From Bacillota bacterium (GTDB taxonomy: Bacteria > Bacillota > UBA5301): 64,000 bases of DNA. This document shows positions 3,591 through 39,439 of this stretch, in pieces. The notes beneath the pieces were generated by a model, which saw only the letters and a list, made by a program, of their open reading frames with translations, was not told the DNA's origin and searched no databases. Each line of letters starts with the position of its first letter. Positions within the stretch are counted from its first letter, which is position 1. Where the stretch lies: positions 975 to 64,974 of the forward strand of contig JACDOJ010000007.1 in NCBI GenBank assembly GCA_017656135.1, written 5' to 3'. The translations under genes were made by a program, and so were the position numbers.

Positions 3591-3653
3591 GATTCTCCCC
3601 CTAGACCAACCTATATTCTAATTTACGTCTCCTAGCTCGTCACCGTGCCATTT

Positions 3654-3683
3654 TTGGCATTGACACACTTGTCCAGGTATAAT
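3654..3683 (+). promoter_or_regulatory. sigma-A promoter for the leu operon (TTGGCA-18-TATAAT)
   Basis: TTGGCA at 3654-3659 and TATAAT at 3678-3683. Short leader with no T-box. Confidence 0.5.
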
Positions 3684-3770
3684 ATAGTAATTAAAAATTA
3701 CATATTGGTCTTTACCTCTCTGAAGAAGGGTTGTCCGCACAAGAAGACTAGAAGTTAGGAGGGAATTAAC

Positions 3771-5315: not shown

Positions 5316-6592
5316 CCCTGACCGAAAAGATCCTGGCTGCCCACGCCGGTAAAGAGCGAGTGGAACCGGGAGAACTAGTAAACTGCCGGGTGGATCTGGT
5401 CTTAGGCAATGACATCACCGCCCCTGTAGCTATAGAGGAGTTTTCCAAAATCGGCGTCAAGGAGGTCTTTGACCGGGACCGGGTTGTCCTGGTCCCCGAT
5501 CACTTCGTACCGAACAAAGACATCAAATCAGCCGAACAGGCCAAAGTACTCCGGGACTTCGCCCGGGCGCAAAACCTGACCTACCGCTTTGACGTGGGCA
5601 CCATGGGGATTGAGCACTGCCTCCTGCCGGAAGCAGGCCTGGTGGGACCAGGGGATCTGGTGGTAGGAGCCGACTCCCACACCTGTACCTACGGGGCTCT
5701 CGGCGCCTTTTCCACCGGGGTCGGCAGCACTGACCTGGCTGCAGCCATGGCCACCGGCGAAGTCTGGTTCAAAGTTCCCCAGACCAGCAAGTTTACCTAC
5801 CACGGGAAACTGCAACCCTGGGTGAGCGGAAAAGACCTCATCCTCTACACCATTGGCGAGATCGGAGTCGACGGTGCCCTCTACCAGTCCATGGAGTTCT
5901 CCGGAGAGGCCATAGCCCGGCTCTCTATGGATTCCCGGTTTACCATGGCCAATATGGCCATCGAGGCCGGAGCCAAAAACGGAATCTTCCCGGTGGATGA
6001 GATAACCGAGAGCTACATCGCCCACCGGCTGAAACGCTCATATAAAGTGTACCGCCCTGATCCGGATGCCACCTACGCCGCCGAGTACGACTTCAACGTA
6101 GAAGAAATTGAGCCTCAGGTGGCTTTTCCCCACCTACCGGAAAATACCAAGGGCATCAGCGAAGCCGCCGGAGTGGTCATCGACCAGGTAGTCATCGGGT
6201 CCTGTACCAACGGGCGGTTAGAAGACTTGAGGGTAGCTGCCAGCATCCTCAAAGGCCGGAAGGTTCATCCTGAGGTCCGGCTCATTGTCATCCCTGGGAC
6301 CCAGCAGATTTACCTCGATGCCCTTAAAGAGGGGATCATCGAAGTGTTGATCCAGGCCGGTGCCGCCGTTTCCACCCCCACCTGCGGTCCCTGTTTAGGT
6401 GGACACATGGGGATTCTGGCCAAGGGCGAGAGAGCTCTGGCTACCACCAACCGCAACTTCGTCGGCCGGATGGGACATCCGGAATCAGAGGTCTATCTGG
6501 CCGGCCCCGCCATCGCTGCCGCCAGCAGCGTCCTGGGCCGGATCGCAAGCCCCGTCGAGCTGGGTCTGAAGGAGGTATCCACTGTAGCATGA
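5306..6592 (+). CDS. leuC: 3-isopropylmalate dehydratase large subunit (short type)
   Basis: Aconitase-family motifs (GSCTNGR, CGPCLG). 428 aa. Overlaps leuA. Confidence 0.9.
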
Positions 6593-7089
6593 AACTGACT
6601 GGACGAGTTTGGAAATTCGGCGACAACATCGACACCGATGTCATCATCCCTGCGCGCTACTTGAACTCAGCCGATCCGGCCAACCTGGCCGCCCACTGCC
6701 TGGAGGACGCAGATCCGGATTTCCCCAGCAAAGTTCAAGCGGGAGATATCATCGTCGCCGGCAAGAACTTTGGCTGCGGCAGTTCCCGGGAACACGCCCC
6801 GCTGGCCTTGAAGGCAGCAGGAGTAGCCTGTGTCATCGCTCCAACTTTCGCCCGGATTTTCTACCGGAACGCCATCAACATCGGCCTCCCGATTTTGGAG
6901 TGCCCGGAGGCTGCTCGAACCATCCAAGAAGGAGACAAAATAAGCGTGGATTTAGAAACCGGTACTATCACCCACACTGCCACAGGCAGTACCTGGCAGG
7001 CCAAACCTTTCCCATCCTTCATGCAAGAGCTGATTGGCGCCGGCGGCCTCATTGCCTACACCCGAAAGAAGGTGACCGGGCATGCCTAA
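6589..7089 (+). CDS. leuD: 3-isopropylmalate dehydratase small subunit
   Basis: 166 aa aconitase swivel domain; overlaps leuC stop. Confidence 0.9.
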
Positions 7090-8185
7090 GATCGCCCTCC
7101 TACCCGGTGACGGCATTGGAAAAGAAGTGGTGCGCGAAGCGGTCAAGATTCTATTAGCCGTCGGCAAGCGCTATAACCTAGATTTTGTCTTTGAAGAAGG
7201 GCTTATTGGGGGCTCTGCTTATGATGCCACCTCTTCCCCTCTTCCTCCGAAAACCATCGACCTCTGCCTTGGGGCTGATGCCGTACTTTTAGGGGCGGTG
7301 GGAGGCCCCAAGTGGGACGATCTTCCGGGAAACTTGCGGCCTGAAGCAGGCCTTTTGGGAATCCGCAAGGCCCTGGGCCTCTACGCCAATCTCCGGCCGG
7401 CCCGGGTGTTTCCCGGCTTGACTGGGGCTTCTCCCCTGAAAGAAAAGGTGGTTTCCGGAATCGATATCCTGGTGATCAGGGAACTCACCGGAGGAATCTA
7501 CTTCGGCGAGCCCCGGGGACGGGAAAAGCTGGTTTCAGGGGGAACCAAAGCCTATGACACCATGGTCTACACCACCGAGGAGGTCCGACGCATCGCCGAG
7601 CTGGCCTTCGAAATCGCGGCAAAACGCTGCGGCCGGGTGACCTCGGTGGACAAAGCCAATGTCTTGGAATCCTCCAGGCTCTGGCGGGAGGTGGTCCGCC
7701 AGGTGCACCAGAGATATCCTGACGTGGTCCTCACCGAAATGTATGTGGATAATTGCGCCATGCAGCTGGTCAGAGATCCGGGTCAGTTCGACGTTATTTT
7801 AACCACCAACCTCTTCGGGGATATCCTCAGCGATGAGGCGGCCATGCTCACCGGCTCTTTGGGTATGCTGCCTTCAGCCAGCCTAGGCGGCAGTGTCGGG
7901 CTGTATGAGCCTGTACACGGCTCAGCCCCGGATATCGCCGGAGAGAACAAGGCCAATCCTCTGGCCACCATCCTCTCAGCGGCCATGCTGCTCCGCTATT
8001 CCCTAGGACTCCATCAGGAGGCCCAGGCCATCGAAGACGCGGTAGAAGCCGCTCTCCTGGCCGGGTACCGCACTTTAGATATCGCCGCCGGCTCCTGTCA
8101 GGTAGTTAGCACTTCCCAAATGGGGGATCTGGTGGCGGGCTTCATCCGCCAGGGCAGCCAGCCTGGCAAGGCAGGTGCTCTCTGA
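7082..8185 (+). CDS. leuB: 3-isopropylmalate dehydrogenase
   Basis: Isocitrate/isopropylmalate dehydrogenase family motifs ([25 protein letters not shown]). Confidence 0.9.
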
Positions 8186-18674: not shown

Positions 18675-20138
18675 TTAGGCCAAGAGCTTTTTAACGTATT
18701 TCTCTACCACCGCCGGCATCTGACCAAGCCCTTTCATGTGAGTCTTTAAGAAAGAATTGGTCAGCATCTCCTTCATCGAGTTGAGGAGGTATTTTTTGTT
18801 GAAATCATCCTCCATTTTATCCCACTTGGGGAGTTTCTGCAGATAAAACTTGCGGTAGCAGGCCAGCATCTCTTTGTGCAGTTCCTGGATGCTGAGGTTT
18901 TTGGGCTCAATCACCGGTTCTATCAGGTTGTACTTGGAGTAATCTTTGGTAACAATATGAGGCTCCAGCTCCTGGTACATGTCGGCATAGGGCCAAGGTG
19001 AGAGCATCAAGAAGTGGGCAAAATCCGGGTCATATTCTATAGCCTGCTGTAAGGTTTTGCTGATGGAGCCCTTGGTCTCATCCGGGGTTCCTAAAATGAA
19101 TGAGGTTTCTGAAATGATTTTGGCCTCTTTGAGTAGCCGGAGGGCTTCCCTGCTCTCTTCAACTTTGATGTTCTTGTTGAACTTATCCAGGCCCTCCTGG
19201 TCGGCGGCCTCCACTCCGACGTAAACATGGATGACCTTGGCCTTTTTGTACTTCCAAAGGATGTCGGCATCCCGAACGATGTCCTCCACACGGGTCTCCA
19301 TGAGAAAATATATCTCACGGTCTAAGGCAATAATCCCGTCTAAGATGGCCTCCCAACGCTTTCGGTCTTTAGTCGGGTACTCATCGGCAAACATGAAGAC
19401 ATTGACGCCGTACTCATCATTGAGGTGGACGATCTCAGAGATGACGCTCTCCGGAGTCCGCCCTCGCCAGGACTGTTCCCAGAACTTCTGTTGGGAACAA
19501 AAGCTGCAGTTCTCCTCACACCCCCGGGAACTGCTGATAACCGCTAAGGTGGAGCCGGGCACCATGAAATATCGGTAATCATCCCAGTTCAGTAGGTCCC
19601 AGGCCGGCTTTAATGAATCCAGCTCAGCCTCAGAAAGTCGCCTTCGTTTAGGCGTCACCACTAAGCCGTCACCGGAGGGATAAGCAAGGCCGGCTATTTC
19701 AGCCAGCGGTTTACCGGTGCCAGATAAGGCCTCGGCAAGCTCAACAATGGTCCTCTCGCCCTCGCCCCTGATTACAAAATCCACCAGCTCAGGGTATTGA
19801 GAGAAAATCTCTTCATACATAAAGGTAGCATGAACGCCCCCTAAGACGGTGGTAATTTCCGGGTTAACTTGTTTGACGGCCATTAACACATCCATCGTAG
19901 CCGGAAAAGAGGCAGTAAAAGCGGTGAGTGCCACAACATCCGGCTGCTCAGCTATGATCCGTTCCACAATCTGATTCAAGTCGTGGTTTAAAGTCATGGC
20001 ATCGTAAATCACCGGATTGTGTCCGGCAGCCCGCAGTTCGCCGGCAAGATAGACGAAACCCAAAGGGGTCCACGTGCCGGCAACCTCCAGAATCCCGCAG
20101 TGATATGGAGGTGTGATTAAGAAAATTTTGAGGCTCAT
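18675..20138 (-). CDS. B12-binding-domain radical SAM protein (class B rSAM)
   Basis: N-terminal cobalamin-binding Rossmann domain. CEENCSFC (CxxxCxxC) radical SAM motif. AAGGAG RBS. 6-nt gap to the upstream gene. Confidence 0.8.
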   Translation of the reverse strand: MSLKIFLITPPYHCGILEVAGTWTPLGFVYLAGELRAAGHNPVIYDAMTLNHDLNQIVERIIAEQPDVVALTAFTASFPATMDVLMAVKQVNPEITTVLGGVHATFMYEEIFSQYPELVDFVIRGEGERTIVELAEALSGTGKPLAEIAGLAYPSGDGLVVTPKRRRLSEAELDSLKPAWDLLNWDDYRYFMVPGSTLAVISSSRGCEENCSFCSQQKFWEQSWRGRTPESVISEIVHLNDEYGVNVFMFADEYPTKDRKRWEAILDGIIALDREIYFLMETRVEDIVRDADILWKYKKAKVIHVYVGVEAADQEGLDKFNKNIKVEESREALRLLKEAKIISETSFILGTPDETKGSISKTLQQAIEYDPDFAHFLMLSPWPYADMYQELEPHIVTKDYSKYNLIEPVIEPKNLSIQELHKEMLACYRKFYLQKLPKWDKMEDDFNKKYLLNSMKEMLTNSFLKTHMKGLGQMPAVVEKYVKKLLA

Positions 20139-20144
20139 GAAGTA

Positions 20145-20510
20145 TCACTCCTTAAGATAGAGCCGGTACAGCCTATACTGGGTAACAGCACCGTAGATGG
20201 CCACTGCCGCCAGGACAATGTGTTTCAGAACCAGCGCCGTTACCTGCCCCCTACCGGCAGCAGGCAACCACTCGTACCGGCGATAGTTGATGGTGCGGAT
20301 GATTCCGCCGATGAGGATCCAGACCCAGGCTCCGAGGGCAGCGTAATGCATACGCTGAACCACTTTTTTCACTAGGGTATTCTGGCCAGGCGAGTACCCC
20401 ATCTCAAGGGCGGAGCGGTGCAGGTACCAAGTCAAAAGCATGGCGCTGAACAGAATCCCTACCGCCAAGTCGTGGAAGTAGTTGCTGAGCATGATCAAGA
20501 TTGCTTTCAT
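20145..20510 (-). CDS. Small integral membrane protein (4 predicted TM), unknown function
   Basis: Hydrophobic 121-aa ORF translationally coupled between the ResB-like gene and the rSAM gene. Confidence 0.5.
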   Translation of the reverse strand: MKAILIMLSNYFHDLAVGILFSAMLLTWYLHRSALEMGYSPGQNTLVKKVVQRMHYAALGAWVWILIGGIIRTINYRRYEWLPAAGRGQVTALVLKHIVLAAVAIYGAVTQYRLYRLYLKE

Positions 20511-21508
20511 TTCGGCACTTCCCTTGTGGACTTGCTGGCAGGCAGGATGGTAAACAAAATGCCTAAGATAATTATAGCTAAGCCTATCGAGAGTAGAGTG
20601 TTTCCGGCTCTGGACTGTACTTCAAATTCTACCCAGTAGCGAAAGACCGGTATTTCCACGCTGTAGCCACCCAAGTCTACAGGTCCTCCCCCTACCGGAA
20701 CCGGTTTGGAGACAGATCCATCTGGGCTGGTGAAGACGAAGACCGGATTTGTCGGAGTAAGGCTGGAATTCACGATCCTCCCCCGAACGTAACGAGCAGC
20801 CGGAGCGAAAGAGACGGTGTATTTGAGGTCTAAGTCAGCCGGTTGAAAGAGATCAGTCTTCTGGCCCTGTTTGTCAAGGACATCAAACTTAGGAGCGCCT
20901 CGCCAGATCAGGTTTCCCTCAGAATCCCGAAGATCCAGCCCCGGAGAGACTCCTAGCTTAGTCGGATGGATCTGCAGCTCACCCACTTCAAGGGGATGAC
21001 CGAAACCGGTGGTTCCGGCGAAGAGTTTATTTTCAGTCTGGTCATATAGGATCAGATCCGCCGCAGTCTCGAGGATATTGCCATCCCAGGAATACCGCAA
21101 GGAGACCTTCTCCAACTGGATGGCCCAGCGGTATTCGGGATTCGGCCTGATGAAACCCTTCCTCAAGCCCTGGTAGCTCTTATCCACATCTAAAATAGAT
21201 TCTCCCTCAGTTAACCGGAAGTGACCTTCAAAGTTATAGACATAGGAATAGGTCGCTCCAATAACCATAATCACTAAGCCAAGTAGGGTGAGTAAGTTAC
21301 CAATGCCGACTACGAGTTTGTCACGGAGAAAATTTTGGATAAGCCTAAACAGCTGGGAGAATAGGTCTAGCAAAAGAAGCACTCCAATTGCGCCAACTAT
21401 CCAGCCCAGCCAATACTTTCCATCTTCTCCCGGGGAGCAGTGCAGGAGAAAGAGATACCCCAGAAAGAACAAAACTATCAAAACAACAGTAGTTTTGCGA
21501 GCCGTCAT
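20507..21508 (-). CDS. ResB/CcsB-like cytochrome c biogenesis protein, half-size paralog 2
   Basis: N-terminal TM region, large extracytoplasmic domain, C-terminal TM after a YxxxxRYW-like segment. ATG at 21508 with GGAG RBS. The longer ORF-track start overlaps ccsA. Confidence 0.65.
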   Translation of the reverse strand: MTARKTTVVLIVLFFLGYLFLLHCSPGEDGKYWLGWIVGAIGVLLLLDLFSQLFRLIQNFLRDKLVVGIGNLLTLLGLVIMVIGATYSYVYNFEGHFRLTEGESILDVDKSYQGLRKGFIRPNPEYRWAIQLEKVSLRYSWDGNILETAADLILYDQTENKLFAGTTGFGHPLEVGELQIHPTKLGVSPGLDLRDSEGNLIWRGAPKFDVLDKQGQKTDLFQPADLDLKYTVSFAPAARYVRGRIVNSSLTPTNPVFVFTSPDGSVSKPVPVGGGPVDLGGYSVEIPVFRYWVEFEVQSRAGNTLLSIGLAIIILGILFTILPASKSTREVPK

Positions 21509-21527
21509 TGGTATCACTCCGGTTAAC

Positions 21528-22349
21528 TTAGAACATCTGTTGGAAGACATGGTAGCTGTCTTGGATGAAGTTAACCCCCCAGAAACTGATGAGGACCGTG
21601 ATAAAGGCCAACACCGCCAGCCAAGCAGCCTTCTTTCCCTGCCACCCCGCCGTCGTCCGGAGGTGGAGATAGAGACCGTAAACAAGCCAACTCAGAAGAG
21701 ACCAGGTTTCCACAGGGTCCCACGACCAGTAACTGCCGTAAAGATCGTTGGCCCAGATGGCTCCGGAGGCAATCATGACAGTGGTCATGGCGAAACCGAA
21801 GGCAACCAGGCGGTAAGCCAAGTCGTCCAATGCCCTTAGGTCCCCCAGCCCAGCCAACCGCTGAGGATTTCTTTCTTTCACAAGGTAAAAAAGGCCTAAG
21901 ACGGCAGCAACCAAGAAGGCTGAATACCCGAACCAAGCGAAAAAGACATGGACCCATAACCAGGGGCTATTATATGCCGGGGTCAGGGGGTCAAGGTCAG
22001 GGGGGCCGGTCTGTGACGCCCAACCCAAAGTCAAAAGCACCACAGGCAGAAGCCCGATGTTGGCCCTCCACAGGCTTGTCCACCGGCGGGATAGGAACAG
22101 CACCAGCACCATCGTGAACCAGGTTCCGGCCAGGGCGTTCTCAAAATCGCCTTTGACCGGAAGGTGACCGGTAGATATGATTCGCACAGCCAGCTCAAGG
22201 GTGTGCAGCAGCACGGCTCCGTAAATAAGCCTCTTAGCAACAGGAAGCCACTTATCTTTTCTAAGAAAGATAACGAAAAACAAGGCCCCGGCGGAAACCG
22301 CATACCCCGCCAGAATAAGATAATAGAGAATTTTTTCCAGCAAGATCAT
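21528..22349 (-). CDS. ccsA: Cytochrome c biogenesis protein CcsA/ResC (system II haem lyase subunit)
   Basis: W-rich WVHVFFAWFGY (WWD-like) motif and conserved His residues in TM helices. Confidence 0.8.
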   Translation of the reverse strand: MILLEKILYYLILAGYAVSAGALFFVIFLRKDKWLPVAKRLIYGAVLLHTLELAVRIISTGHLPVKGDFENALAGTWFTMVLVLFLSRRWTSLWRANIGLLPVVLLTLGWASQTGPPDLDPLTPAYNSPWLWVHVFFAWFGYSAFLVAAVLGLFYLVKERNPQRLAGLGDLRALDDLAYRLVAFGFAMTTVMIASGAIWANDLYGSYWSWDPVETWSLLSWLVYGLYLHLRTTAGWQGKKAAWLAVLAFITVLISFWGVNFIQDSYHVFQQMF

Positions 22350-23314
22350 ACTGCATCTCTTTCCCGAAAGACCAGACTATACCTGAGCAGTATCCCTAAG
22401 ACCAGTACAGCAAATCCGATAAATATCAAATACCGTCCTTTGACGCTGTTTACCGCGAAACCCAGCCAGTACCTGTACTCCGGGATTTCTACAGTGTAAC
22501 CCAGGAAGTCGGTTGGTTCTCCACCAACTGCAATAAGGGTCTCCCCCGCGGCATCACTTCCCAGGCTGAAGGCGGTGACCTTTCCATCGGCCAGCTCCGC
22601 TGTGACCCTGACGAGTTCTCCTGAGAGCGGCCATTTGAAGAGGTCTGTCTTCCCTGCTACCAGGTCCAGGTTGACGAAACCAGTCCACAAGGTCTCAGTG
22701 GGGGAAGATTTGATTACGATCAGCGGTGAAAAACCGAACTTGTATATGGCAGCTTTTCTACTCTGGTAATAAAAAGGCCTGTTAACAGAAGTAGAAACCT
22801 GTTTGGCAGAAGAAGGCATACCCTTAAAAACTGTTACCTCAGCTCCCAGCTCTTCAATAAGGGTAGGACTATAAAAATCGACATGAACCTTATCCAACCT
22901 GATTGCGGCGTCACCGAAATCTGTAGGCTCTAAAGGTCCGCTCGACAAAATATAGTAGTTCTCCCGCACATCCTCGACAGTCTGCCCTTCAGTCAAAATT
23001 AAAATAGCCCTGAACTTATAAAAGGAGGAGTAGAACCCTGCAATGATCAAGAGCAGAATCCCGAAGTGAAATAAAACTGAGCCGGCCAGCCTGATCCTCT
23101 TTTTCGCATCCATGGTCTTGGCCAGAAGGCGAACCCGCATAAACAGGCAATAAACAAGTAGCACGGCTAACAAGATTATTACCAGGCTCAACAGCCACCA
23201 GAACCAGGATGGAGCGTAACCTGAATAAACAGAGGCCCTTACCACCAGCACAATAGCACCGGCAACTAACAGAGCCACTGAAATTTGGTTTACCAATCTA
23301 ATATCTGGCAGCAC
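22346..23314 (-). CDS. ResB/CcsB-like cytochrome c biogenesis protein, half-size paralog 1
   Basis: ResB-like N-terminal TM pair plus extracytoplasmic domain and C-terminal TM. Architecture parallels the paralog at 20507-21508. Confidence 0.65.
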   Translation of the reverse strand: MLPDIRLVNQISVALLVAGAIVLVVRASVYSGYAPSWFWWLLSLVIILLAVLLVYCLFMRVRLLAKTMDAKKRIRLAGSVLFHFGILLLIIAGFYSSFYKFRAILILTEGQTVEDVRENYYILSSGPLEPTDFGDAAIRLDKVHVDFYSPTLIEELGAEVTVFKGMPSSAKQVSTSVNRPFYYQSRKAAIYKFGFSPLIVIKSSPTETLWTGFVNLDLVAGKTDLFKWPLSGELVRVTAELADGKVTAFSLGSDAAGETLIAVGGEPTDFLGYTVEIPEYRYWLGFAVNSVKGRYLIFIGFAVLVLGILLRYSLVFRERDAV

Positions 23315-23360
23315 AATGCAGATATTCTATTTGCAGTGCTAATTTCCTCTGCTGGGACCA

Positions 23361-25241
23361 CTAATAAATCGGACGCGTATATGATGTTGTCGAGTGCTTA
23401 CTACACCCATATCCGGAACTCTCATCATAATAGTCACCACATGAAATAGTCGCTCCCGGTGTTATGAGATCTTGCTCTGAACTGAATATCTCGATCCCGA
23501 AACCATTGAGAAAATGGGTTCCCCTGGTGGTCTCCGGACGGTCAGCTCGGCCGGAATTGGCGCCGTGAAGCCCGCCGGCTGTATACCCGTCTGTCAACTG
23601 GCGGGAAAAGTCCCCGTGGCAGACAAAACAGCCAACCTCCGGAACTCCTGGCGGGTAGTCCGGCTGTTGGTTCCAATGCCCTCCCTTAGTGTGATAAGGA
23701 AAAGCGCTCCTGCTCCCTTCGGTGCCATTTTTCCCGTATACCTCTTCATCATGGCAAAGGTAACAGACTACAGAATTGCCATTATTGTCCACTATCCCCG
23801 ACTCCCGCAACAGCCAGTGGTTTTCAGAACCATGGGGCCCAGTGATCCGGTCCGCAGAAGTATCATCATTACCATGGCAATCACAACAGGCGATGGTAGT
23901 GTTCAGGTCCCAGCCCAACTCCTCCCGGAAACCACTGACCGTATAAGGGTTCCTGTTCTTCCCAGGCAGAATACAACCGTGAGTTGCCAGGTTATTGGGG
24001 TTAAAGTAAACGTCTATCTCCTCTTTATGGTCATTGGAAAGTTGCATGCTTGAGACTGTACCATGACACTTGAGACACAATTCATATTCATAAGTGATTT
24101 CATGTACCGGTCCATAATTCGGCGGAGTCCAAGGTGTGTCTGAATAGGTATAGGGAGCATTTGGCCCGACCTGGGGCGCATAAATCCCCTTCAACATCCC
24201 GCCGGCGGTATCATCACCCAATACCCTGCTGCCAGACTCTCCATAATGGGGGTCATGGCAGTCGGTGCATTCGATATGGGTTTCCTCTGGAGGATTCGGT
24301 TCGGTAGGATAATGCACCCCGTCATAACTGGGGTCTTGAACCGGATGGCTGTAAGTCTTATAAAACTCATCCCTTATATCTGGAGCCGCAGTTCCGTTGT
24401 GGCAACGAAAACAAACTTCCTCCAAAAGGGTCCGGTTGGGATCACCGTCATCCTGGAGGAGTTCCTGTTCGCTGGCCCTGTGCATATCATGACAGCCCAA
24501 ACAGGCCCACTGGGCAACGGTCTTAGTAACATTAGTGTCGGGGTCGGTCCAGCTTACTCCAGTAGCCGCACCGTGAGCACTCTGGTCCCAACCATTCTGG
24601 TGATGGCACTCTTTACAGAGAGTACCGTAATCAGCAGTCAAAACCAGGAAGTTGTCGTTATTACAATGAGGATCATGACATGAGCTGCACTGTACTAAAC
24701 CGTTCTCCAATCGGACCGGGCTGGTAGTGTTAGGGTCAACCTGCTCAGGAGCCCACAACTCAGCAGTCTGAACCACAGGTATAGAAATGGGGTGATCATC
24801 CGCTAAGTCTGTCGTCAGGTTAGTCGGGTTAGTGATAGTACCATCGGGATTTGTACCAACCAGATTATACACTGACCCATTCACCGCACCTACAGCCACT
24901 GTGCCATCATGGCAGCTTAAGCACAATTTAGATGAGCCGGTTGGTACAGGGTAATCCGCCGGATTATAGTTGATGCTGCGGGAATTATACATTGTATACG
25001 GTCCAGTCGCGAGGTCGTGGTTCCATAGTGGTGTTGCCGGATTGGCGTTATGGGGAGTGTGGCAGAAAACACAGACTTCGTCAGTGGTGTCTGAGTAAAT
25101 CGTGTTCTCAGGGGCATAGATCGGTGCACTGCTGGACAAATTGTGCTTTGTAGCTAGTATGTTCGAAGCCTTAACCTGAACGCCAAACAATAAGGTTATA
25201 AGGCTAATACACCCGATATACCTAATACTCCGCCTAATCAT
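23361..25241 (-). CDS. Secreted multihaem c-type cytochrome (about 11 CxxCH motifs)
   Basis: Signal peptide MIRRSIRYIGCISLITLLFGVQVKA. CxxCH motifs: CVFCH, CLSCH, CSSCH, CKECH, CLGCH, CFRCH, CTDCH, CLKCH, CCDCH, CYLCH, CFVCH. AGGTGAGG RBS before the ATG at 25241. Confidence 0.85.
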   Translation of the reverse strand: MIRRSIRYIGCISLITLLFGVQVKASNILATKHNLSSSAPIYAPENTIYSDTTDEVCVFCHTPHNANPATPLWNHDLATGPYTMYNSRSINYNPADYPVPTGSSKLCLSCHDGTVAVGAVNGSVYNLVGTNPDGTITNPTNLTTDLADDHPISIPVVQTAELWAPEQVDPNTTSPVRLENGLVQCSSCHDPHCNNDNFLVLTADYGTLCKECHHQNGWDQSAHGAATGVSWTDPDTNVTKTVAQWACLGCHDMHRASEQELLQDDGDPNRTLLEEVCFRCHNGTAAPDIRDEFYKTYSHPVQDPSYDGVHYPTEPNPPEETHIECTDCHDPHYGESGSRVLGDDTAGGMLKGIYAPQVGPNAPYTYSDTPWTPPNYGPVHEITYEYELCLKCHGTVSSMQLSNDHKEEIDVYFNPNNLATHGCILPGKNRNPYTVSGFREELGWDLNTTIACCDCHGNDDTSADRITGPHGSENHWLLRESGIVDNNGNSVVCYLCHDEEVYGKNGTEGSRSAFPYHTKGGHWNQQPDYPPGVPEVGCFVCHGDFSRQLTDGYTAGGLHGANSGRADRPETTRGTHFLNGFGIEIFSSEQDLITPGATISCGDYYDESSGYGCSKHSTTSYTRPIY

Positions 25242-25370
25242 AATGACCTCACCTTTTTGCTTACAACTTTGCCCCATTCGTTGTTTCGCTACATCTCTTA
25301 CCATATCCTGCCACGAAAAAGGCCCTTCTACAGATTGCGAAGGGCCAAGCGAAGCTTTCTCAGGAGTAGC

Positions 25371-25997
25371 CTAAGGTCGCGCGATAAACTCGCGAACGGG
25401 CACTTTTTGTACGGCTTTGAAGACAACCTTGCCCGTTCCCTGATGGTTAGGGTTGGTGCTAAGCCAAGAAGATCGCCCCCGGCTGCGGGCCCCTTGTACA
25501 TATACAGGCGTCGGCTGCTGCTGCCTGGCCCGGACCGGAGTCCCGCTGATCTGGACAGGAACTTCTCCACCAGGAGCGCCACCGTTTACCGGCACGGGGA
25601 TGCCGCCGTTCACAGGCACCGGGATCGCGCCGTCAAACACAGTTACGGCAACGTCAATGAGGACTTTTTGCCTCAGTTGGTCAGAATTCAAGAGGTTGAA
25701 CTCAATGAAGGCGATCTCAAAAGTCACTTCGCAAGTATTGTTTGGTGCTGCACCGGGTACGTCGACAAAACCACTGAAGGGTATATCCTCGGCCTGGTGG
25801 ACAACGATGTTGTCAGGTTCCCGGACGAAAAAGATCTGCTTGTGCAGGACGCCTTGGAATATTACTTTATTAGAAATAACAGTGCAGGTCGCGTCCCTGA
25901 TCACCGCACGGATCTCGTCGATTTTAACAGCCGGTTGCTCCAATTCAACAATGCTGTCTACCAGGATCTGGTCGGTTGCTGTTCCTACTACGGGCAT
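25371..25997 (-). CDS. DUF3794/SPOCS-domain protein (spore-associated family) with PVPVNGG tandem repeat
   Basis: Sequence pattern typical of DUF3794 proteins. GGAGGG RBS before the ATG at 25997. Confidence 0.55.
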   Translation of the reverse strand: MPVVGTATDQILVDSIVELEQPAVKIDEIRAVIRDATCTVISNKVIFQGVLHKQIFFVREPDNIVVHQAEDIPFSGFVDVPGAAPNNTCEVTFEIAFIEFNLLNSDQLRQKVLIDVAVTVFDGAIPVPVNGGIPVPVNGGAPGGEVPVQISGTPVRARQQQPTPVYVQGARSRGRSSWLSTNPNHQGTGKVVFKAVQKVPVREFIARP

Positions 25998-26068
25998 CTC
26001 TATCCCTCCTTCCCTACTATCATATGAGGGATGAGGGCACAGAGGACAAGGCCATCGGCACAAAATTA

Positions 26069-26479
26069 TCAGTTCAGGTGCTGAGCCTCTGGGTGCTGGT
26101 GGAAGTTCTCACAGATGATAAGGACGCTTTCCAAGTAACGCATGGCAGACCGGTCCGCAACCTTTTGATACTTCGCCAAATCGACGGTTCGGCCCTTGGA
26201 ACGCAAGACGATCCGGTTCTCCTCCAACCGTAACTTACCCTGCAAAGATCTGAAATCATCTTCCGGAATCCTAATCAACAGGCCAAAACAGACAGCCAGG
26301 ACCAGAAAGAGGTCTACTCCTGATTGATTGAGTTTCTTCAAGATCGGTTGAAACTCTCTCTCGGTCAAAAGGTCCAATGCCGTGTAGGTTTCCACCACGT
26401 CATATAAGTTAACATACCCTTTGGTCATGTCCATATTGAGTTGGATAAATTTCAGCGCAAGTTCCATCAAGTCGCTCAT
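26069..26479 (-). CDS. Hypothetical protein
   Basis: 136-aa ORF with AAGGAG RBS; no recognisable motif. Confidence 0.4.
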   Translation of the reverse strand: MSDLMELALKFIQLNMDMTKGYVNLYDVVETYTALDLLTEREFQPILKKLNQSGVDLFLVLAVCFGLLIRIPEDDFRSLQGKLRLEENRIVLRSKGRTVDLAKYQKVADRSAMRYLESVLIICENFHQHPEAQHLN

Positions 26480-26668
26480 ATTAATCTCCTTGACCCTTTA
26501 TTCGTTGACGGAACCTACTTACCTTTAGGACAGACGAACAAAAATTACCAACTTATTAGCGAATTGGCGCCGTTAGTTTGTGCAAACTATTAATGGAAAG
26601 GAGATGATACAATCCAAGGGGAAAGCAACGTTTAGGGGGCCAATAATCAAAGGCCCCCCAAAAAAAAT

Positions 26669-27520
26669 TTAGAATGCCCAGCTTAACGAGATCAGATGGG
26701 AATCGTAGATGTAGCAATAGTCAAAAGAGTAGTCTCCATCACCGGAGTTAAGCCCGAAACCGGCAGTCCAAGTATCGTGATAGAAACCCGCTCTGAGTGC
26801 TCCCTTCCCGAAACGCTCCTCGACTCCGAAAGAAAATCTGGTATCTCCAGTTAAATCGTAAGTCTCGAAGGCGAGAGTGGTATCGTCAGTCAAGTCGTAG
26901 GCGACGCCCGGCCGGACGTTGGTGGCCATGGCAATCGTCCCTACAGCGAAGTTGAGGTCGGAACCGAAGATATCCTGCGTCAACAGGCCGATGCGCAACC
27001 TATCGGTAGCCCGGTAGTGAACGGAGATATCCATCCCGGCTGCCTGGGCCAGATAGCTTTGGTAGGTTTGGTCGGTAAGAAGGGTTAAAGTGGCCTCGTA
27101 AAACTTCAGGTTAGTCCCGAAGGAAAGCCTATCATCCACCGGCACCGCAAAGGAAAGCTGGTACCAGGTGTTATCAAAAAGCGCCGGGATCCCCTCAGCT
27201 CCGTCATTCAGCTTAAGGCCATTCAGACTGTTGATGCCGCTGGCCCCAAAGACCAGATCACCTTGGCGTTCTACATCGGCGAAAAACCACCGGTAGTTTA
27301 TGTTCCCTTCCAGAGTCAGCATGTAGGTGCTCTCATTCTTGTCACCGATCTGCGCTAGGCCGGCGGGATTCCAGTAGACCGCATTGGCATCATCAGCAAC
27401 AGCCACAAACGCCCCGCCCATAGCCAAAGGCCTCGCTCCCACACAGGCCAGCACCGTTCCGGCCACCAAGGTCACCAGAACAAGTAAGGCAAAAATTAGG
27501 ATGTACAATCGCCTCAGCAT
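26669..27520 (-). CDS. Secreted beta-barrel-like protein (FadL/PorV-like N-terminal motif)
   Basis: Signal peptide. Motif GGAFVAVADDANAVYWNPAGLA. Alternating beta-strand pattern with C-terminal WAF. GAGGGAGG RBS. Confidence 0.55.
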   Translation of the reverse strand: MLRRLYILIFALLVLVTLVAGTVLACVGARPLAMGGAFVAVADDANAVYWNPAGLAQIGDKNESTYMLTLEGNINYRWFFADVERQGDLVFGASGINSLNGLKLNDGAEGIPALFDNTWYQLSFAVPVDDRLSFGTNLKFYEATLTLLTDQTYQSYLAQAAGMDISVHYRATDRLRIGLLTQDIFGSDLNFAVGTIAMATNVRPGVAYDLTDDTTLAFETYDLTGDTRFSFGVEERFGKGALRAGFYHDTWTAGFGLNSGDGDYSFDYCYIYDSHLISLSWAF

Positions 27521-29662: not shown

Positions 29663-30238
29663 TCAACAGGATTCCCGAAAAGATGCCAATGTATGATGCC
29701 CGGCAAGCCTCTGGCCTACAGCCACGAAGAAAATCGACTTCAGGATGTCCCCAGGCAGGAAAATGAGAAACCCGGTTTTGAGCAACGTCAGAAAAGGCAC
29801 CGGAGTCCCGGCGAAAAAGCGGAGCGAAATGTAGAGGTACGGCAGACCGATGGCGTAGATAACCAGATGGGCTAAAATCGCTACCCCCAAGAGTTTCTTC
29901 TTCTCCGCTTTTTGCTGGGGATGGAAACTGCGCCCAATCAACCAGGCCGCCGGGATGAAACCCAAGAGATAGCCGAAGCTGGGTTTAAAAAGATAAGAAA
30001 GGCCTCCCCCAGCTGTGAAAACCGGCAAGCCCATAAGTCCTAAAAGAATGTAGACGATTTGGCTCGCCGCTCCCAGCCAAGGCCCTAAGACGAGCCCAGA
30101 AAGGAGCACCACCAGAGACTGAAGGCTGATGGCCACCGGCGGAATCGGAATCCGGACAAAAGCAGCTACAGACATCAAAGCGGCCATAACTCCTACCAAA
30201 ACTAACTTGCGGGTAACCAGATTACTCTTTAGACTCAA
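29663..30238 (-). CDS. bioY: Biotin transporter BioY (ECF S-component)
   Basis: BioY-family polytopic membrane protein. Overlaps the 3' end of the BirA-domain gene. Start codon uncertain (TTG at 30238 or ATG at 30187). Confidence 0.75.
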   Translation of the reverse strand: MSLKSNLVTRKLVLVGVMAALMSVAAFVRIPIPPVAISLQSLVVLLSGLVLGPWLGAASQIVYILLGLMGLPVFTAGGGLSYLFKPSFGYLLGFIPAAWLIGRSFHPQQKAEKKKLLGVAILAHLVIYAIGLPYLYISLRFFAGTPVPFLTLLKTGFLIFLPGDILKSIFFVAVGQRLAGHHTLASFRESC

Positions 30239-31532
30239 CTATACTCACCTCTTCTGCGAAAACTTCCTTGATTCTTCCATCATCCCTCTGAATCATCAGG
30301 CTGCCTGAAGGGGTGATCTCCACGGCCACTCCGGAGAAACTCTCCGCTCCAAGCACCCGGACCCGCCGGCCTAAGGTGCAGGAAAGCTCCTCATACTCAG
30401 AAACCATCCTGGCTAGACCGTGTTTAAGATAATCCTGATAGAGGGCGGTCAACTCCAAAAGATAGCTCCGGAACAAGGCCTGACGACTTACCCGCTTATC
30501 CCAGGCCAAGTAGAGGGAGGAAATCTCCTTATCCAAATCAGGCAGTTCATCTTGCTGCTGGTGGACGTTGATTCCTGTTCCTAGGACAACATAAGACAGC
30601 TTTTCTCCTTGAATCCCTGATTCAGCCAGACAGCCGGCAACTTTGGCTCCACCGATTAACAGGTCATTTGGCCACTTGATTTTAGCCTTATCGGCCCCCC
30701 GGGGTGCGAAACCGTTGACAGCCTTGGCCAGGGCCAGAGCTCCAAGGATGTTGAGGCTGGGTACAAAGTAGGGCTTGATGCCGGGCCTTAAGAGCACACT
30801 ACACCAAATGCCGGCAAAAGGCCGGGAGACCCAGCTCCGGCCGGATCTACCCTTGCCCTTCCACTGGGTTTCCGCAACCACCGTAGTGCCCTCCGGAGCG
30901 CCCTCCAAAGCCAGTTCGCGGAGTTCATCGTTGGTTGAGCCTACCTCCAGTTTGTAGATCAGGGGATGACCCAACTCCTCCGGATCTAACCCAGCCAGGA
31001 CAACACTGGGATAGAGCCGGTCCAGGTCAGCTTCTCCCTCCGCCGGAGTATAGATTCGCACCCCTTCGGCGGCTGGATCAAACTTAGCAGCCAGCTCCCT
31101 GACCCTTACCCCGCTGGGAGTTGCAAGCTCCGGTGCCAGCTCAGCCAAGGGGATGAGCACAAAAGCCCGCTCCCACATCCGAGGATGAGGGATGGTAAGA
31201 TCTTCGGTCTTGATAGATTCATCATCATAGAGCAATATATCAATATCCACCGCCCGGGGACCCCAGCGAATCCGGCGGTCCCGACCGTAGTAATCTTCGA
31301 TTCTCCTGGTCTGATTCTTGAAGTCAGCAGGAGAGAGGCCGGTTTTCACCTTTACCACCTGGTTCAGGTAGTCCCTCTGCCCAGTGACCCCCATCGGCCG
31401 GGTCTCGTAGTAGCTGGAGGTCGCCTCCACGCTGGTCTCCGGCAGCTCAGCCAAAAAAACCAAGGCTCCTGCCAGGTTTTTGGCCCGGTTTCCGATGTTG
31501 CTGCCGAGAGATAAGAACACCTCATGTTTCAT
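30222..31532 (-). CDS. Fusion of 6-hydroxymethyl-7,8-dihydropterin pyrophosphokinase (HPPK/FolK) and biotin-[acetyl-CoA-carboxylase] ligase BirA (group I, no HTH)
   Basis: N-terminal approx. 160 aa carry HPPK motifs (LSLGSNIGNR, RWGPRAVDIDILLYDD, PHPRMWERAFVL). C-terminal approx. 240 aa are the BPL catalytic domain (GKGRSGRSW, KWPNDLL) plus the C-terminal SH3-like domain. Single uninterrupted ORF. Confidence 0.75.
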   Translation of the reverse strand: MKHEVFLSLGSNIGNRAKNLAGALVFLAELPETSVEATSSYYETRPMGVTGQRDYLNQVVKVKTGLSPADFKNQTRRIEDYYGRDRRIRWGPRAVDIDILLYDDESIKTEDLTIPHPRMWERAFVLIPLAELAPELATPSGVRVRELAAKFDPAAEGVRIYTPAEGEADLDRLYPSVVLAGLDPEELGHPLIYKLEVGSTNDELRELALEGAPEGTTVVAETQWKGKGRSGRSWVSRPFAGIWCSVLLRPGIKPYFVPSLNILGALALAKAVNGFAPRGADKAKIKWPNDLLIGGAKVAGCLAESGIQGEKLSYVVLGTGINVHQQQDELPDLDKEISSLYLAWDKRVSRQALFRSYLLELTALYQDYLKHGLARMVSEYEELSCTLGRRVRVLGAESFSGVAVEITPSGSLMIQRDDGRIKEVFAEEVSIVESKE

Positions 31533-36925: not shown

Positions 36926-39439
36926 CTAGGCTCTGGAGACTAAACACCTGGTATAGATGGAAATACCGTCGGACATACCTTTACTTCGCACCCTGGCTAC
37001 AGCTATGGTCAAATCATCCTGAGGGACCCCGTCACAAGCCGCCATGCACTGGGCAAAGAGCTGCTCGGCAAAATCGGCAGCTCCCTGCTTTTTGGTATTC
37101 TCCAAGACTTTTTCAAACCAGTCTCCAGGCAAATCGGGGGCGCAGTCCTTAACCCCGTCAGTTATCATTACAATATAGTCATTTGGGTAGAGCCCTTCGG
37201 TGATGATCTGGACATCGACTTGAGAGAGAATCCCGATGGGCAGGGATTTGCCTTCCACCTTCAGGATCTCACTGCCTCTGACGATGTAGGTAGGCTGGCA
37301 GCCAATCTTCACAAACTCGGCCTCACCTGTATGCTCATCGAAGAGAAAGAGGTCGAGGGTGGCAAAACTCTCTTCGGGAGTCCTGAAGAGAAGCAGACTG
37401 TTTATGGCCCTGACTGCGAACTGACGATCCAGCCCCGCTCGGAGCAGGTTTTCCAAAAGGGAGAGCGTAGTACTGCTCTCTAAAGCCGCCTTGCTTCCGG
37501 AGCCCATGCCGTCGCTCAAGGCAATGCCGATCTTGCCTCCGGGCAGGGTTATCAAGAGGTGGTTATCTCCGTTCACCCGGGCGCCGCTCTTAGACTCCTC
37601 CACCACCTTATATTCCAAGTGGTATGCTTTTTCAGGCAGGAGCAGCAGCTCACACCAGGATTCACCGGTGTAGTACCCACAGGAGGGCTTAACCAGGCTA
37701 AACGGAGTTTCCATAACCGTCGAGGCCACCGGAGCCAGTTTCCTACACTCCTCCCTGCCGCCGCAGTTAGAACAGAGGACATGGATTTTGTACTGGCCGT
37801 CAGGTTGCAGGTCGGCTTTCACATCTTGGACCCGGCACTGTTTCTGGAGAAAGGCATCCAGTAAGGCTTTGGAAGGATCCTCCTTCACGCACCGGCGTTC
37901 CTGCATCTCCTGGGCCAAAGAGGCCACCACATCAGCCACCCCTTGCAGCTGGTTGGAGACAATCTCTCTGCTGGCTAAAAGTTTCTTTTCCCAGCTGCTC
38001 TCCACGCTCTCCAGTTCCAAGAGGTAGTTCACGGCCTGAACCAGTTTGTGAACCTGGGTGCAGGACCTTTTAGTTCCCACAGGCAGTTCTTGCACCTGTA
38101 AAGAGCCGTGCTTTTCGGCCTCTACCAGAACCTCTTCGAAGTTCTTGAAGGTACAGTAAAACTGGTCTTGCCAGCACCGGTTATAGCTGACGCACCCAGT
38201 GCAGACCCGGTCCGAGACGGCGTTGATCAGCTTGGAGATATCCGGGTGGTCCGTTGAAACCTGGTCCTGGGGAAACTGGGCAAAGCTCCTGGCCAGTTCG
38301 GTCAAAACATCCCCAAAGGTGGCCAGGCGCCCGGAGACCCAATCTCGTAGTTTTTGTTCTTCTCCGGCCAAAGCCCCCCGCTGCCGGACAGGATTCAAAG
38401 GAAACCAGCCGGCCCACTGCTGGATGAGACGGGAGGGGAAGACACCGATGAACAGGGCCGCCCCTAAAACTGATGAAGCCATTTCCATGAGCTCAACGGG
38501 GGTCAGCAGCTGGTAGGAAAGGAGAGTAGCTCCGGCTACAGAACCGAAGATGACACCTGCCTTGCCCATCTCTCTAAAAAGGCCGGCACAGACCCCAGCC
38601 GCCGCCAACGCCGTCAAGCAGTAAGGTGAGAAATCGCTTAAGAGAGCCACAATCACCCCAGCGGATATGGCGGTTACGGCACCTGCCCCAGGTCCAGCCA
38701 ACCAGGCCGCCGTAATGACCAGGATCCTGAGAACCATATCTTGAACAGAGAGGAGGCCCCAGTGTACCCCGTCCAAACCCGCAATACCGATGCCTGTAAT
38801 CAGGACAGCAAAAGCAGTCTCTTCATACCGCATCCCAGTGACAAAAAGATTGCTGGCTTTGAGTCTCGTTCCGAAATAACTCAGAATGGCCACGAGGAGG
38901 CCTGCCAAAACCGCTTCTAAAATTGCAAAGTACAAAAAAACGGGCTCACAGCCTGACAAAGTAGCCAGAATAATGCGCCCGATTAGCACTGCTCCAGAGG
39001 TGTAAAAGGCCCCAAAGATAATCTGGTAGCTGACCGTTCCTCCCTGCCGCCTGGCCAGGTGTGACCCGATTAAAACCAGGAAGGAAAGAAGCAGATATGG
39101 TGGGAGCTTGTCCACTCCCAGACTGGAGGCCAAGCCTATTATGGTGCCTATCAGGACCGGTAAGAGTCCCCAGGGATGAACCAGAGATATAGAGGCCAGG
39201 GCCGCCAGGGCAAAAGGATGGAACTCGCCAAAAAGTGACGCCCTGGCCCACATTATGGCAGTACCCGTCAGCAGAATGTGGGACCTGTTAAAAAGGAAGA
39301 ACAGGGATCGTGAATTTTTCGCCAAACCTTTGCAGCTATCCAAAAAGTTTTTCTGCCAAGTTACTGATATGGCCAAATTCATCCCCCCATAGCTTGTCCC
39401 ATTATATTGATAGAATAACACTGCCGGGGGTAAAGCCAT
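36926..39439 (-). CDS. spoIIE: Stage II sporulation protein E (PP2C serine phosphatase)
   Basis: About 10 N-terminal TM helices and C-terminal PP2C domain (GDGMGSG, ITDGV). Start uncertain (39439 or 39382). Confidence 0.85.
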   Translation of the reverse strand: MALPPAVLFYQYNGTSYGGMNLAISVTWQKNFLDSCKGLAKNSRSLFFLFNRSHILLTGTAIMWARASLFGEFHPFALAALASISLVHPWGLLPVLIGTIIGLASSLGVDKLPPYLLLSFLVLIGSHLARRQGGTVSYQIIFGAFYTSGAVLIGRIILATLSGCEPVFLYFAILEAVLAGLLVAILSYFGTRLKASNLFVTGMRYEETAFAVLITGIGIAGLDGVHWGLLSVQDMVLRILVITAAWLAGPGAGAVTAISAGVIVALLSDFSPYCLTALAAAGVCAGLFREMGKAGVIFGSVAGATLLSYQLLTPVELMEMASSVLGAALFIGVFPSRLIQQWAGWFPLNPVRQRGALAGEEQKLRDWVSGRLATFGDVLTELARSFAQFPQDQVSTDHPDISKLINAVSDRVCTGCVSYNRCWQDQFYCTFKNFEEVLVEAEKHGSLQVQELPVGTKRSCTQVHKLVQAVNYLLELESVESSWEKKLLASREIVSNQLQGVADVVASLAQEMQERRCVKEDPSKALLDAFLQKQCRVQDVKADLQPDGQYKIHVLCSNCGGREECRKLAPVASTVMETPFSLVKPSCGYYTGESWCELLLLPEKAYHLEYKVVEESKSGARVNGDNHLLITLPGGKIGIALSDGMGSGSKAALESSTTLSLLENLLRAGLDRQFAVRAINSLLLFRTPEESFATLDLFLFDEHTGEAEFVKIGCQPTYIVRGSEILKVEGKSLPIGILSQVDVQIITEGLYPNDYIVMITDGVKDCAPDLPGDWFEKVLENTKKQGAADFAEQLFAQCMAACDGVPQDDLTIAVARVRSKGMSDGISIYTRCLVSRA

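Follow-up and report, generated by a model that had tools for sequence, protein, structure and literature searches.

The 64-kb window analysed here (64,000 nucleotides of contig JACDOJ010000007.1 from a Bacillota bacterium) carries on its minus strand a cluster of genes that encode, in order of transcription, an 11-haem c-type cytochrome, a ResB protein (ResB1), a CcsA protein, a second ResB-like protein (ResB2), a small membrane protein called tm4 here and a radical S-adenosylmethionine (SAM) enzyme that depends on cobalamin, abbreviated rSAM (Table 1). An earlier interpretation made from the letters of the DNA (the sequence-only reading) had counted seven genes; we found six open reading frames (ORFs), all of which were confirmed at the positions in Table 1. 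It had proposed that a multihaem cytochrome is secreted and has a System II cytochrome c synthetase of its own, and our results support this. From the cytochrome onwards the ORFs are spaced by a 46-nucleotide (nt) gap, a 4-nt overlap, a 19-nt gap, a 4-nt overlap and a 6-nt gap, the last of which, between tm4 and rSAM, had been noted before and was confirmed. An Rfam scan of positions 17-29 kb found neither a cobalamin riboswitch nor any other Rfam element. A promoter and terminator scan gave counts no higher than those in shuffled sequence and so did not define the ends of the operon.

Table 1. Features of the cytochrome cassette and of the genes upstream of it (positions in the window).
Feature	Position	Strand	Evidence or remark
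11-haem c-type cytochrome, 626 aa	23361-25241	-	11 CxxCH; Sec-type signal peptide, about residues 1-26
N-terminal tetrahaem domain of the cytochrome, residues 27-214	24600-25163	-	Homology to the OmcE nanowire subunit
C-terminal Cys-loop tail of the cytochrome, CGDYYDESSGYGCSKH, residues 601-616	23394-23441	-	C-X(4-17)-C comparison
ResB1, 322 aa	22346-23314	-	Pfam ResB (PF05140), 51.4 bits vs cut-off 24.6
Codon of predicted transmembrane His83 of ResB1	23066-23068	-	CcsBA alignment
CcsA/ResC-type System II subunit, 273 aa	21528-22349	-	PF01578, TIGR03144
ResB2, 333 aa, ATG at 21508	20507-21508	-	Pfam ResB, 30.8 bits vs cut-off 24.6
tm4, CopD-like, 121 aa	20145-20510	-	31-sequence alignment; AF2 model
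Cobalamin-dependent (class B) radical SAM enzyme, BchE-like, 487 aa	18675-20138	-	PF02310 and PF04055
SipL/SPOCS-domain protein, 230 aa	25371-26063	-	Pfam/NCBIfam; directly upstream of cytochrome; membership uncertain
136-aa protein	26069-26479	-	No family match; membership uncertain
PorV/FadL-like beta-barrel protein, 283 aa	26669-27520	-	Pfam/NCBIfam matches; membership uncertain
aa, amino acids; AF2, AlphaFold2.

The rSAM and tm4 genes are linked to ResB and CcsA genes across at least seven phyla. Related loci were gathered by look-ups of six homologues and a scan of species-representative genomes, and the best 80 of the 440 relatives' loci were fetched (numbered with the prefix L below). 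ORFs were called in these loci and searched with profiles built from the window proteins. A ccsA or ResB gene was present within 10 kb in 50 of the 63 loci with a non-fused rSAM, and in 43 of 49 where at least 3 kb was available upstream. Among loci in which rSAM is fused to an SRPBCC domain the corresponding number was 2 of 21 (Fisher P = 1e-8 against the non-fused loci). The tm4 gene was found in 38/63 non-fused loci, usually abutting rSAM, and an ORF with at least four CxxCH motifs in 31/63. Linked loci came from Bacillota, Actinomycetota, Chloroflexota, Nitrospirota, Thermodesulfobacteriota (including Geotalea), Ignavibacteriota/Bacteroidota and Lentisphaerota.

One Chloroflexota contig has the gene order of the window with a single ResB, and the double-ResB layout is shared by the two closest relatives (70% identity). 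In a neighbour-joining (NJ) tree rooted on two BchE sequences, the rSAM family formed one long-branch clade with the linked state throughout and the fused forms nested within it as derived members. Two cassettes were found in single metagenome-assembled genomes (MAGs; L008 with L055, L031 with L049), and two ResB-CcsA pairs in single operons (L035, L088), a pattern that fits private rather than housekeeping synthetases. The rSAM gene might have been transcribed independently and be unrelated to its neighbours; the 6-nt gap and the recurrence of the same neighbourhood across phyla tie it to the module. Private System II lyases are already known. Full-text literature searches returned no description of a radical SAM enzyme or of tm4 linked to ResB or CcsA, and the cassette with these two genes is apparently an undescribed addition to the known System II.

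The same survey bears on whether rSAM and tm4 are passengers that merely ride with cytochrome islands and have no role in biogenesis. The G+C content of the cluster (0.505) is below that of its flanks (0.556 on the side of the pyrimidine operon and 0.536 on the other), as in a mobile island, and 13 of the 63 non-fused loci, mostly on short contigs, had neither ccsA nor ResB. However, although protein identity across phyla is only 50-56%, the genes keep their order, their overlaps and their gaps of 4-19 nt, and the fused clade, an internal control, occurs without this neighbourhood. We therefore regard a passenger effect as very unlikely.

The cytochrome gene starts at the ATG at 25241, with a AAAGGTGAGG ribosome-binding site. 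The protein matched the Pfam family Paired_CXXCH_1 (E = 4.5e-23). It contains exactly 11 CxxCH motifs, CCDCH among them, so that the number given in the sequence-only reading was not too high, and none of the variant motifs CxxCK, Cx3CH, Cx4CH and CX15CH was found in it. Eleven motifs in 626 residues are far above chance; only one other ORF of at least 80 aa in the window has even a single CxxCH, and no other ORF there is multihaem. All 11 motifs were conserved in an alignment of 10 sequences from four or five phyla. CCDCH had been pointed out as unusual, and we considered it as a special haem site. This was ruled out, since the extra Cys is not conserved and orthologues do without it.

In a phmmer search against the PDB, residues 10-214 of the cytochrome matched 7TFS (E = 2.3e-24), which we take to be Geobacter OmcE, and 9YUQ (E = 4.3e-18). 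Both alignments cover all four CxxCH motifs and the motif TKH(D/N)LSS. Entry 9YUQ is the OmcE filament of Desulfuromonas soudanensis, and in the OmcE polymer one haem is ligated by a His from the next subunit. The N-terminal part of the window protein is homologous to OmcE, with its four CxxCH in the OmcE order, and NHL propellers recur in the cassettes; the 9YUQ preprint describes resB/ccsB, beta-propeller and beta-barrel genes around omcE in Desulfuromonadia. Unlike OmcE, a stand-alone tetrahaem protein of about 220-230 aa, the window cytochrome has 626 residues and 11 haems, with a seven-haem C-terminal extension. As judged by sequence homology, the OmcE-like part is one domain of a larger protein. 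OmcE homologues are reported in the preprint from five phyla, Bacillota not being included. The present data extend OmcE-like domains to Bacillota and define a conserved 11-haem family: proteins of 580-727 aa with 10 or 11 haems and an OmcE-like N-terminus were found in cassettes of Bacillota, Lentisphaerota, Ignavibacteriota/Bacteroidota and Nitrospirota. One cassette (L009) holds two paralogous 11-haem cytochromes (2804-4846 and 6047-7867). These duplicates, and the two cassettes in one genome (L008 and L055), indicate that the family is expanding by duplication.

Stand-alone OmcE-like tetrahaem ORFs (200-249 aa, four CxxCH) were also observed in four rSAM clusters (L056, L065, L066 and L064). 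The hosts are Ignavibacteriota/Bacteroidota, Lentisphaerota and Planctomycetota MAGs, phyla that are absent from the list in the OmcE preprint.

The C-terminal part of the cytochrome is common to giant cytochromes of Thermincola, Carboxydocellales and Actinomycetota. In Thermincola, Calderihabitans and Carboxydocellales the gene order is giant cytochrome, ResB, CcsA and tm4/rSAM, and several of these giant proteins, which are of the CFE_2239 type, share both the C-terminal domain and the tail of the window protein. They differ from it in that the CFE_2239-type proteins of Carboxydocella and Thermincola, Fe(III)-reducing Gram-positives, have 16-32 haems and no OmcE-like N-terminus. In Carboxydocella, 'cytochrome c maturation proteins' have been noted beside the giant cytochrome; the rSAM is not mentioned in the papers examined on the Carboxydocella and Thermincola giant-cytochrome organisms. 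The tail, a C-X(4-17)-C pair within the last 50 residues, was present in 19 of 22 cytochromes encoded directly upstream of a cassette ResB and in 5 of 36 other multihaem ORFs of the same loci (Fisher P = 5e-8). The Cys pair is often followed by a His one to three residues on (C-X(n)-C-X(1-3)-H).

We compared the System II proteins with Pfam, NCBIfam and the CcsBA structure. CcsA scored 148 bits with PF01578 (cut-off 29.9, E = 3.8e-43) and 193.3 bits with TIGR03144 (cut-off 187.6). It has the tryptophan-rich (WWD) motif as WSWDP at residue 208, and His134, His229 and His267, which by their spacing we take to be P-His1, TM-His2 and P-His2. When ResB1 is aligned with Helicobacter hepaticus CcsBA (PDB 7S9Y), its His83 ('VLFHFG') falls on the His in 'LLLHASF', presumably the transmembrane (TM) haem ligand TM-His1, and its C-terminal helix on CcsBA residues near 300. 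Since ResB1 matches both the N-terminal helices and the helix near residue 300 of CcsB, a ResB of 320 aa is a complete minimal CcsB and not half of one. ResB1 and CcsA together carry the features of a complete System II synthetase.

The sequence-only reading had described a System II split into two half-size ResB proteins. If ResB had been split in two, or its gene broken by a frameshift, ResB1 and ResB2 would together rebuild one canonical protein, and each is indeed about 60% as long as B. subtilis ResB. The alignments already refute this. The two proteins align with each other end to end (28% identity over 279 aligned positions, E = 8e-25), they match the same part of the Pfam ResB profile (positions 146-265 and 152-315), and ccsA intervenes between their genes. 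ResB1 by itself matches both the N-terminal and the residue-300 helices of the CcsB part. Hydropathy gave three N-terminal hydrophobic segments and one C-terminal segment for each, the normal ResB layout, with the loop domain between them; the loop and TM segments of the topology proposed earlier (TM-periplasmic-TM) are thus present, but the simple arrangement of one segment on either side is not. Each copy is a complete short ResB, the two are paralogues, as had been proposed, and a split or frameshifted gene is barely credible. NCBIfam gave no match for ResB1 and weak, unrelated matches far below the cut-offs for ResB2; neither protein matched a ResB-family model there.

Alignment against full-length ResB had been suggested as a means of locating the conserved His residues. 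ResB1 keeps His83, the residue aligned with the His of CcsBA, whereas in the pairwise alignment ResB2 has Leu76 ('NLLTLLG') opposite it and lacks TM-His1; its three relatives likewise have no His in this stretch. We then surveyed 65 ResB-like ORFs of at least 250 aa in the related loci. The His was kept in 37 of 38 ResB proteins encoded directly upstream of ccsA, the exception being truncated at a contig end, and was absent from 9 of the 10 ResB-like ORFs directly upstream of tm4 or rSAM. ResB2 is a ResB-like paralogue that, from its residues, is predicted not to function as a ResB. Only three other homologues were found among 5.8 billion proteins (56-58% identity), all of them His-less. The AlphaFold2 (AF2) model of ResB2 (predicted local distance difference test score, pLDDT, 71.6) has three TM helices, a beta-rich domain and one TM helix. 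Its sole significant Foldseek matches in the PDB were CcsBA entries 7S9Y and 7S9Z (E = 1e-6, with low TM-scores of 0.26-0.29).

In an NJ tree, ResB2 and its counterparts in L008 and L009 were sister to the ResB1 proteins of the same genomes. This crude tree suggests that ResB2 is a lineage-specific duplicate. We also considered ResB2 as an orthologue of a His-less clade encoded after FtrD-like genes in Geotalea and Nitrospirota; the tree, crude as it is, places ResB2 beside its own ResB1, and the loss of the His in ResB2 looks independent of that clade.

The Geotalea and Nitrospirota loci (L045, L057, L077, L087, L019, L050, L067 and L079) carry a recurrent module in the order FtsX/MacB-type permeases, an ORF of about 223 aa that clusters with the permeases, an FtrD-like gene (PF10080), the His-less ResB-like gene, rSAM and tm4. 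In some of them a tm4 also stands next to another rSAM paralogue, which is more divergent and about 450 aa long.

The cassette resembles known System II synthetases (Bacillus ResB-ResC, CcsB-CcsA and the fused CcsBA of 7S9Y) in the WWD motif and three His of CcsA, in the TM His, four segments and large outer domain of ResB1, in its overlapping resB and ccsA genes and in the match of the ResB2 model to CcsBA. It differs from them in the short ResB proteins (322 and 333 aa, where most other cassettes have 420-500 aa), in the second, His-less ResB, in an operon without ResA/CcdA thiol-reduction genes, and in the addition of a B12-dependent rSAM and a CopD-like protein. A private synthetase beside its client cytochrome, with several synthetase copies in one genome, is also the arrangement of NrfI and CcsA1 in Wolinella succinogenes. 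To our knowledge a radical SAM enzyme is part of neither of these systems. The motifs that NrfI and CcsA1 serve, CxxCK and CX15CH, are non-canonical, whereas all 11 motifs in the window protein are canonical and only its C-terminal Cys...Cys-x2-His tail is unusual.

The tm4 family is small, with 293 representatives among 1.84 billion. Across 31 homologues N10, Y11, H13, D14, G69, R72, E80, W81, A84, G86, R87, Q89, K96 and H97 were invariant. The protein had been described as having four TM segments; its AF2 model (pLDDT 90.6) consists of three long helices and one short one (2-37, 41-74, 76-87 and 90-120, the third being short). Window tm4 scored 17.3 bits with CopD (PF05425; E = 0.006), below the cut-off of 32.1, and 14 of the 31 family members matched this profile, with a best E of 3e-7. 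Fold searches with tm4 gave nothing specific and NCBIfam no match. A resemblance to HemJ was considered and received no support in Pfam scans of the 31 members.

Four natural fusions of tm4 were observed: P0173 (L088, 8001-9305), P0177, P0184 (L089) and P0256. The partners are a PrsA/PpiD-like peptidyl-prolyl isomerase (PPIase), a PsbP/DcrB-like domain, a PKD/NHL propeller protein or an N-terminal periplasmic domain. In three fusions tm4 is followed by an extra hydrophobic segment and then by a periplasmic-type domain, which is PrsA/PpiD-like, PsbP/DcrB-like or unassigned; in the fourth a signal peptide and a soluble domain precede it. At first these fusions seemed to place the C-terminus of tm4 outside, which the extra TM segment in the fusions ruled out. 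Because of the fusion layouts, the N-terminus of tm4 is predicted to lie outside and the C-terminus inside; the invariant His pair (His13 and His97) and the loop E80-W81...R87-Q89 would therefore be at the outer face. In L088 the operon runs giant cytochrome, NHL protein, ResB, CcsA, two small ORFs, ResB, CcsA, tm4-PPIase, redoxin and rSAM, the PPIase and the redoxin being predicted periplasmic maturation factors that share the operon of tm4. Through the fusions tm4 is connected with periplasmic folding factors and with the NHL proteins, which were met repeatedly in the clusters (16 loci). From these features we infer that tm4 has an outer-face role in binding haem or a metal.

The rSAM protein matched PF02310 (E = 3e-28) and PF04055 (E = 5e-21) and has the CX3CX2C motif as CEENCSFC at residue 207. 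These are the domains of a class B enzyme, and cobalamin binding is predicted. No hydrophobic segment was found, as expected of a cytoplasmic protein. Across 26 family members the three Cys of the motif were invariant and the B12-binding domain was well conserved. The best NCBIfam match was BchE (TIGR02026, 415.7 bits, below the cut-off of 481.35), followed by the hopanoid enzymes HpnR (161 bits) and HpnJ and, more weakly, by the glutamine C-methyltransferase of methyl-coenzyme M reductase and methyltransferases of ribosomally synthesized and post-translationally modified peptides; rSAM passed the cut-off of no NCBIfam model. Over about 95% of its length it shared 37-39% identity with genes annotated as bchE on phototroph plasmids; other radical SAM genes on plasmids reached only 25-33%. 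The substrate of BchE is a Mg-porphyrin, of which it oxidises and cyclises the C13 propionate methyl ester, and BchE is reported to be membrane-associated. Its relatives BchQ and BchR methylate chlorin side chains. The earlier statement that such enzymes typically methylate is thus too narrow, as the nearest characterised relative, BchE, oxidises and cyclises a tetrapyrrole side chain without methylation. With BchE the window enzyme shares the B12-binding and radical SAM domains and full-length similarity. It differs in scoring below the BchE cut-off, in forming a separate clade on a long branch (in the tree with two BchE sequences) and in its neighbours, which are the haem exporters ResB/CcsA and the cytochrome; no bch or photosynthesis genes were present among the window ORFs examined.

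The SRPBCC-fused rSAM proteins form a clade of 640-680 aa with a C-terminal SRPBCC/COQ10-like domain (PF10604, PF03364). Their loci (L006, L012, L016, L018, L023-L025, L028 and others) belong to Nitrospirota, Thermodesulfovibrionia, and the gene is often near sigma-54 response regulators.

Three other substrates or roles for rSAM were weighed against this evidence. The first is a membrane lipid or quinone, for example methylation of a menaquinone that feeds the cytochrome chain; the gene would then belong to the cassette because electron transfer depends on this carrier. It would account for the lipid-binding type of the SRPBCC/COQ10-like domains in close relatives, for the hopanoid enzymes as the second and third NCBIfam matches and for the small membrane protein as constant neighbour. 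The BchE score far exceeds that of HpnR (416 against 161 bits), the identity to BchE extends over the full length, and it is the haem handlers ResB and CcsA that recur beside rSAM, whereas quinol dehydrogenases and isoprenoid genes do not. We consider a lipid or quinone substrate unlikely.

The second is the unfolded cytochrome itself, which rSAM might modify before Sec export, for instance at the C-terminal Cys...Cys-x2-His tail, as B12 radical SAM enzymes that modify peptides do. That tail is specific to cytochromes beside a cassette ResB (the 19/22 against 5/36 given above), and B12-dependent radical SAM enzymes acting on proteins or peptides are among the weaker NCBIfam matches. Yet six loci (L047, L069, L072, L075, L076 and L081) have rSAM with ResB-CcsA and no cytochrome within reach, the SRPBCC-fused relatives point to a small ligand, Pfam detected no SPASM or peptide-recognition domain in rSAM, and the nearest family works on a tetrapyrrole. 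Modification of the polypeptide is thus distinctly unlikely.

The third role involves no chemistry: rSAM would be a haem-trafficking factor similar to HemW that hands haem to the private ResB/CcsA channel. HemW offers a precedent: derived from HemN and thus related to a porphyrin-processing enzyme, this radical-SAM-like protein has become a haem chaperone directed to the membrane and delivers haem to membrane proteins; rSAM too is a relative of a porphyrin-processing enzyme, the reported membrane association of BchE would suit such a function, and the linkage of rSAM is to the haem exporter, not to a particular cytochrome motif. HemW differs in being HemN-like without a cobalamin domain, and its sequence is related to that of rSAM only at the level of the superfamily. 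The intact CX3CX2C motif, its invariant Cys residues and the retained B12 domain suggest that catalysis is retained, although HemW keeps its cluster too. A chaperone without chemistry has the same low probability, in our estimate, as modification of the polypeptide.

We give somewhat better than even weight to a reading in which the six genes are inherited together as one cassette for the production and maturation of an 11-haem cytochrome related to OmcE, with rSAM acting on haem or its precursor before export. ResB1 and CcsA would export haem and attach it to this cytochrome in particular. ResB2, presumably unable to supply the haem ligand, may act as a non-catalytic partner, either a scaffold or a holder of the unfolded cytochrome. 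The rSAM enzyme would act in the cytoplasm on haem or its immediate precursor, ahead of export; it might oxidise or methylate a side chain, or turn a propionate into a vinyl group. On the outer side of the membrane, tm4 would use its two invariant His to handle the tetrapyrrole (or a metal), and the finished cytochrome would carry electrons outside the cytoplasm. We infer a tetrapyrrole substrate because BchE is the nearest family, because the constant partners are haem handlers and because the SRPBCC fusions of close relatives suggest a small hydrophobic ligand and speak against a protein as the probable substrate.

Several points weigh against this reading. The chemistry proposed for rSAM rests on sequence and neighbourhood. 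All 11 haem motifs are canonical, so that the sequence of the cytochrome demands neither a special haem nor a special lyase. The conserved face of tm4 is periplasmic in the predicted topology, and a hand-over between it and a cytoplasmic enzyme is not obvious. The SRPBCC-fused relatives, 51-55% identical to rSAM, stand apart from ccsA, and the product of rSAM may therefore be of general use. The System II genes seen for the source organism are those in the 64-kb window. The survey was seeded on rSAM, drew mostly on MAG contigs and counted linkage from rSAM towards ResB/CcsA. The trees are NJ trees and crude, and the ResB2 model is of medium confidence.

A bolder version is possible, though we find it doubtful: the cassette would represent an unknown branch of c-type cytochrome biogenesis in which a BchE-related rSAM alters or completes the haem in the cytoplasm, and a private ResB/CcsA with tm4 exports it and attaches it to OmcE-related and giant multihaem cytochromes. 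If so, many cytochromes of extracellular electron transfer across phyla would carry a modified haem c. System II is viewed as a minimal machine of ResB/CcsA and thiol reductants; its list of parts would grow by a radical SAM enzyme and a new two-His membrane protein, which accompany ResB/CcsA in at least seven phyla. If rSAM acts on haem, its reaction would be either a haem modification of a new kind or an alternative, anaerobic way of finishing haem. This would also bear on redox tuning and on the heterologous production of electron-transfer cytochromes and 'nanowires', which is known to be limited by their expression in foreign hosts. Being small, the cassette lends itself to direct testing.

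Upstream of the cytochrome on the right flank lie three co-directional genes (Table 1) and then a DinB-like polymerase gene; the left flank, identified from ORF translations, holds the pyrimidine operon and a small heat-shock gene. The protein encoded at 26669-27520 has a signal peptide and a PorV/PorQ/FadL-type N-terminal motif, and matched NF033709 (E = 6e-19, below the cut-off) and Toluene_X (E = 3.5e-6). The genes at 25371-27520 were syntenic in the closest relatives L008 and L009 only, where the SipL-domain and 136-aa genes hold the same position (341 and 92 bits), and were absent from the cassettes of other phyla. Because their synteny is limited to close relatives, they were left out of the core. 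The G+C content is about 0.505-0.511 over 18675-27520, which comprises the cassette and the three upstream genes, against 0.536 for the whole window, and this is compatible with acquisition as an island.

The window also encodes SpoIIE (36926-39439), FtsH and TilS, and the source organism is therefore a sporulating member of the Bacillota. The sequence-only reading had placed the cytochrome on the surface of a spore-forming Firmicute. Sporulation is borne out by SpoIIE, but a Gram-positive surface is put in question by the PorV/FadL-like barrel and the two membranes that it may imply. An outer-membrane-type barrel two genes upstream suggests either that this sporulating cell has two membranes or that the barrel is a partner of the cytochrome.

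Farther from the cassette, a 436-aa ORF on the minus strand (30222-31532) combines an HPPK domain, of folate synthesis, with a biotin/lipoate protein ligase domain. It adjoins a BioY-like gene and a pterin-binding (DHPS) gene, and may be either an unusual fusion or an over-extended ORF call.

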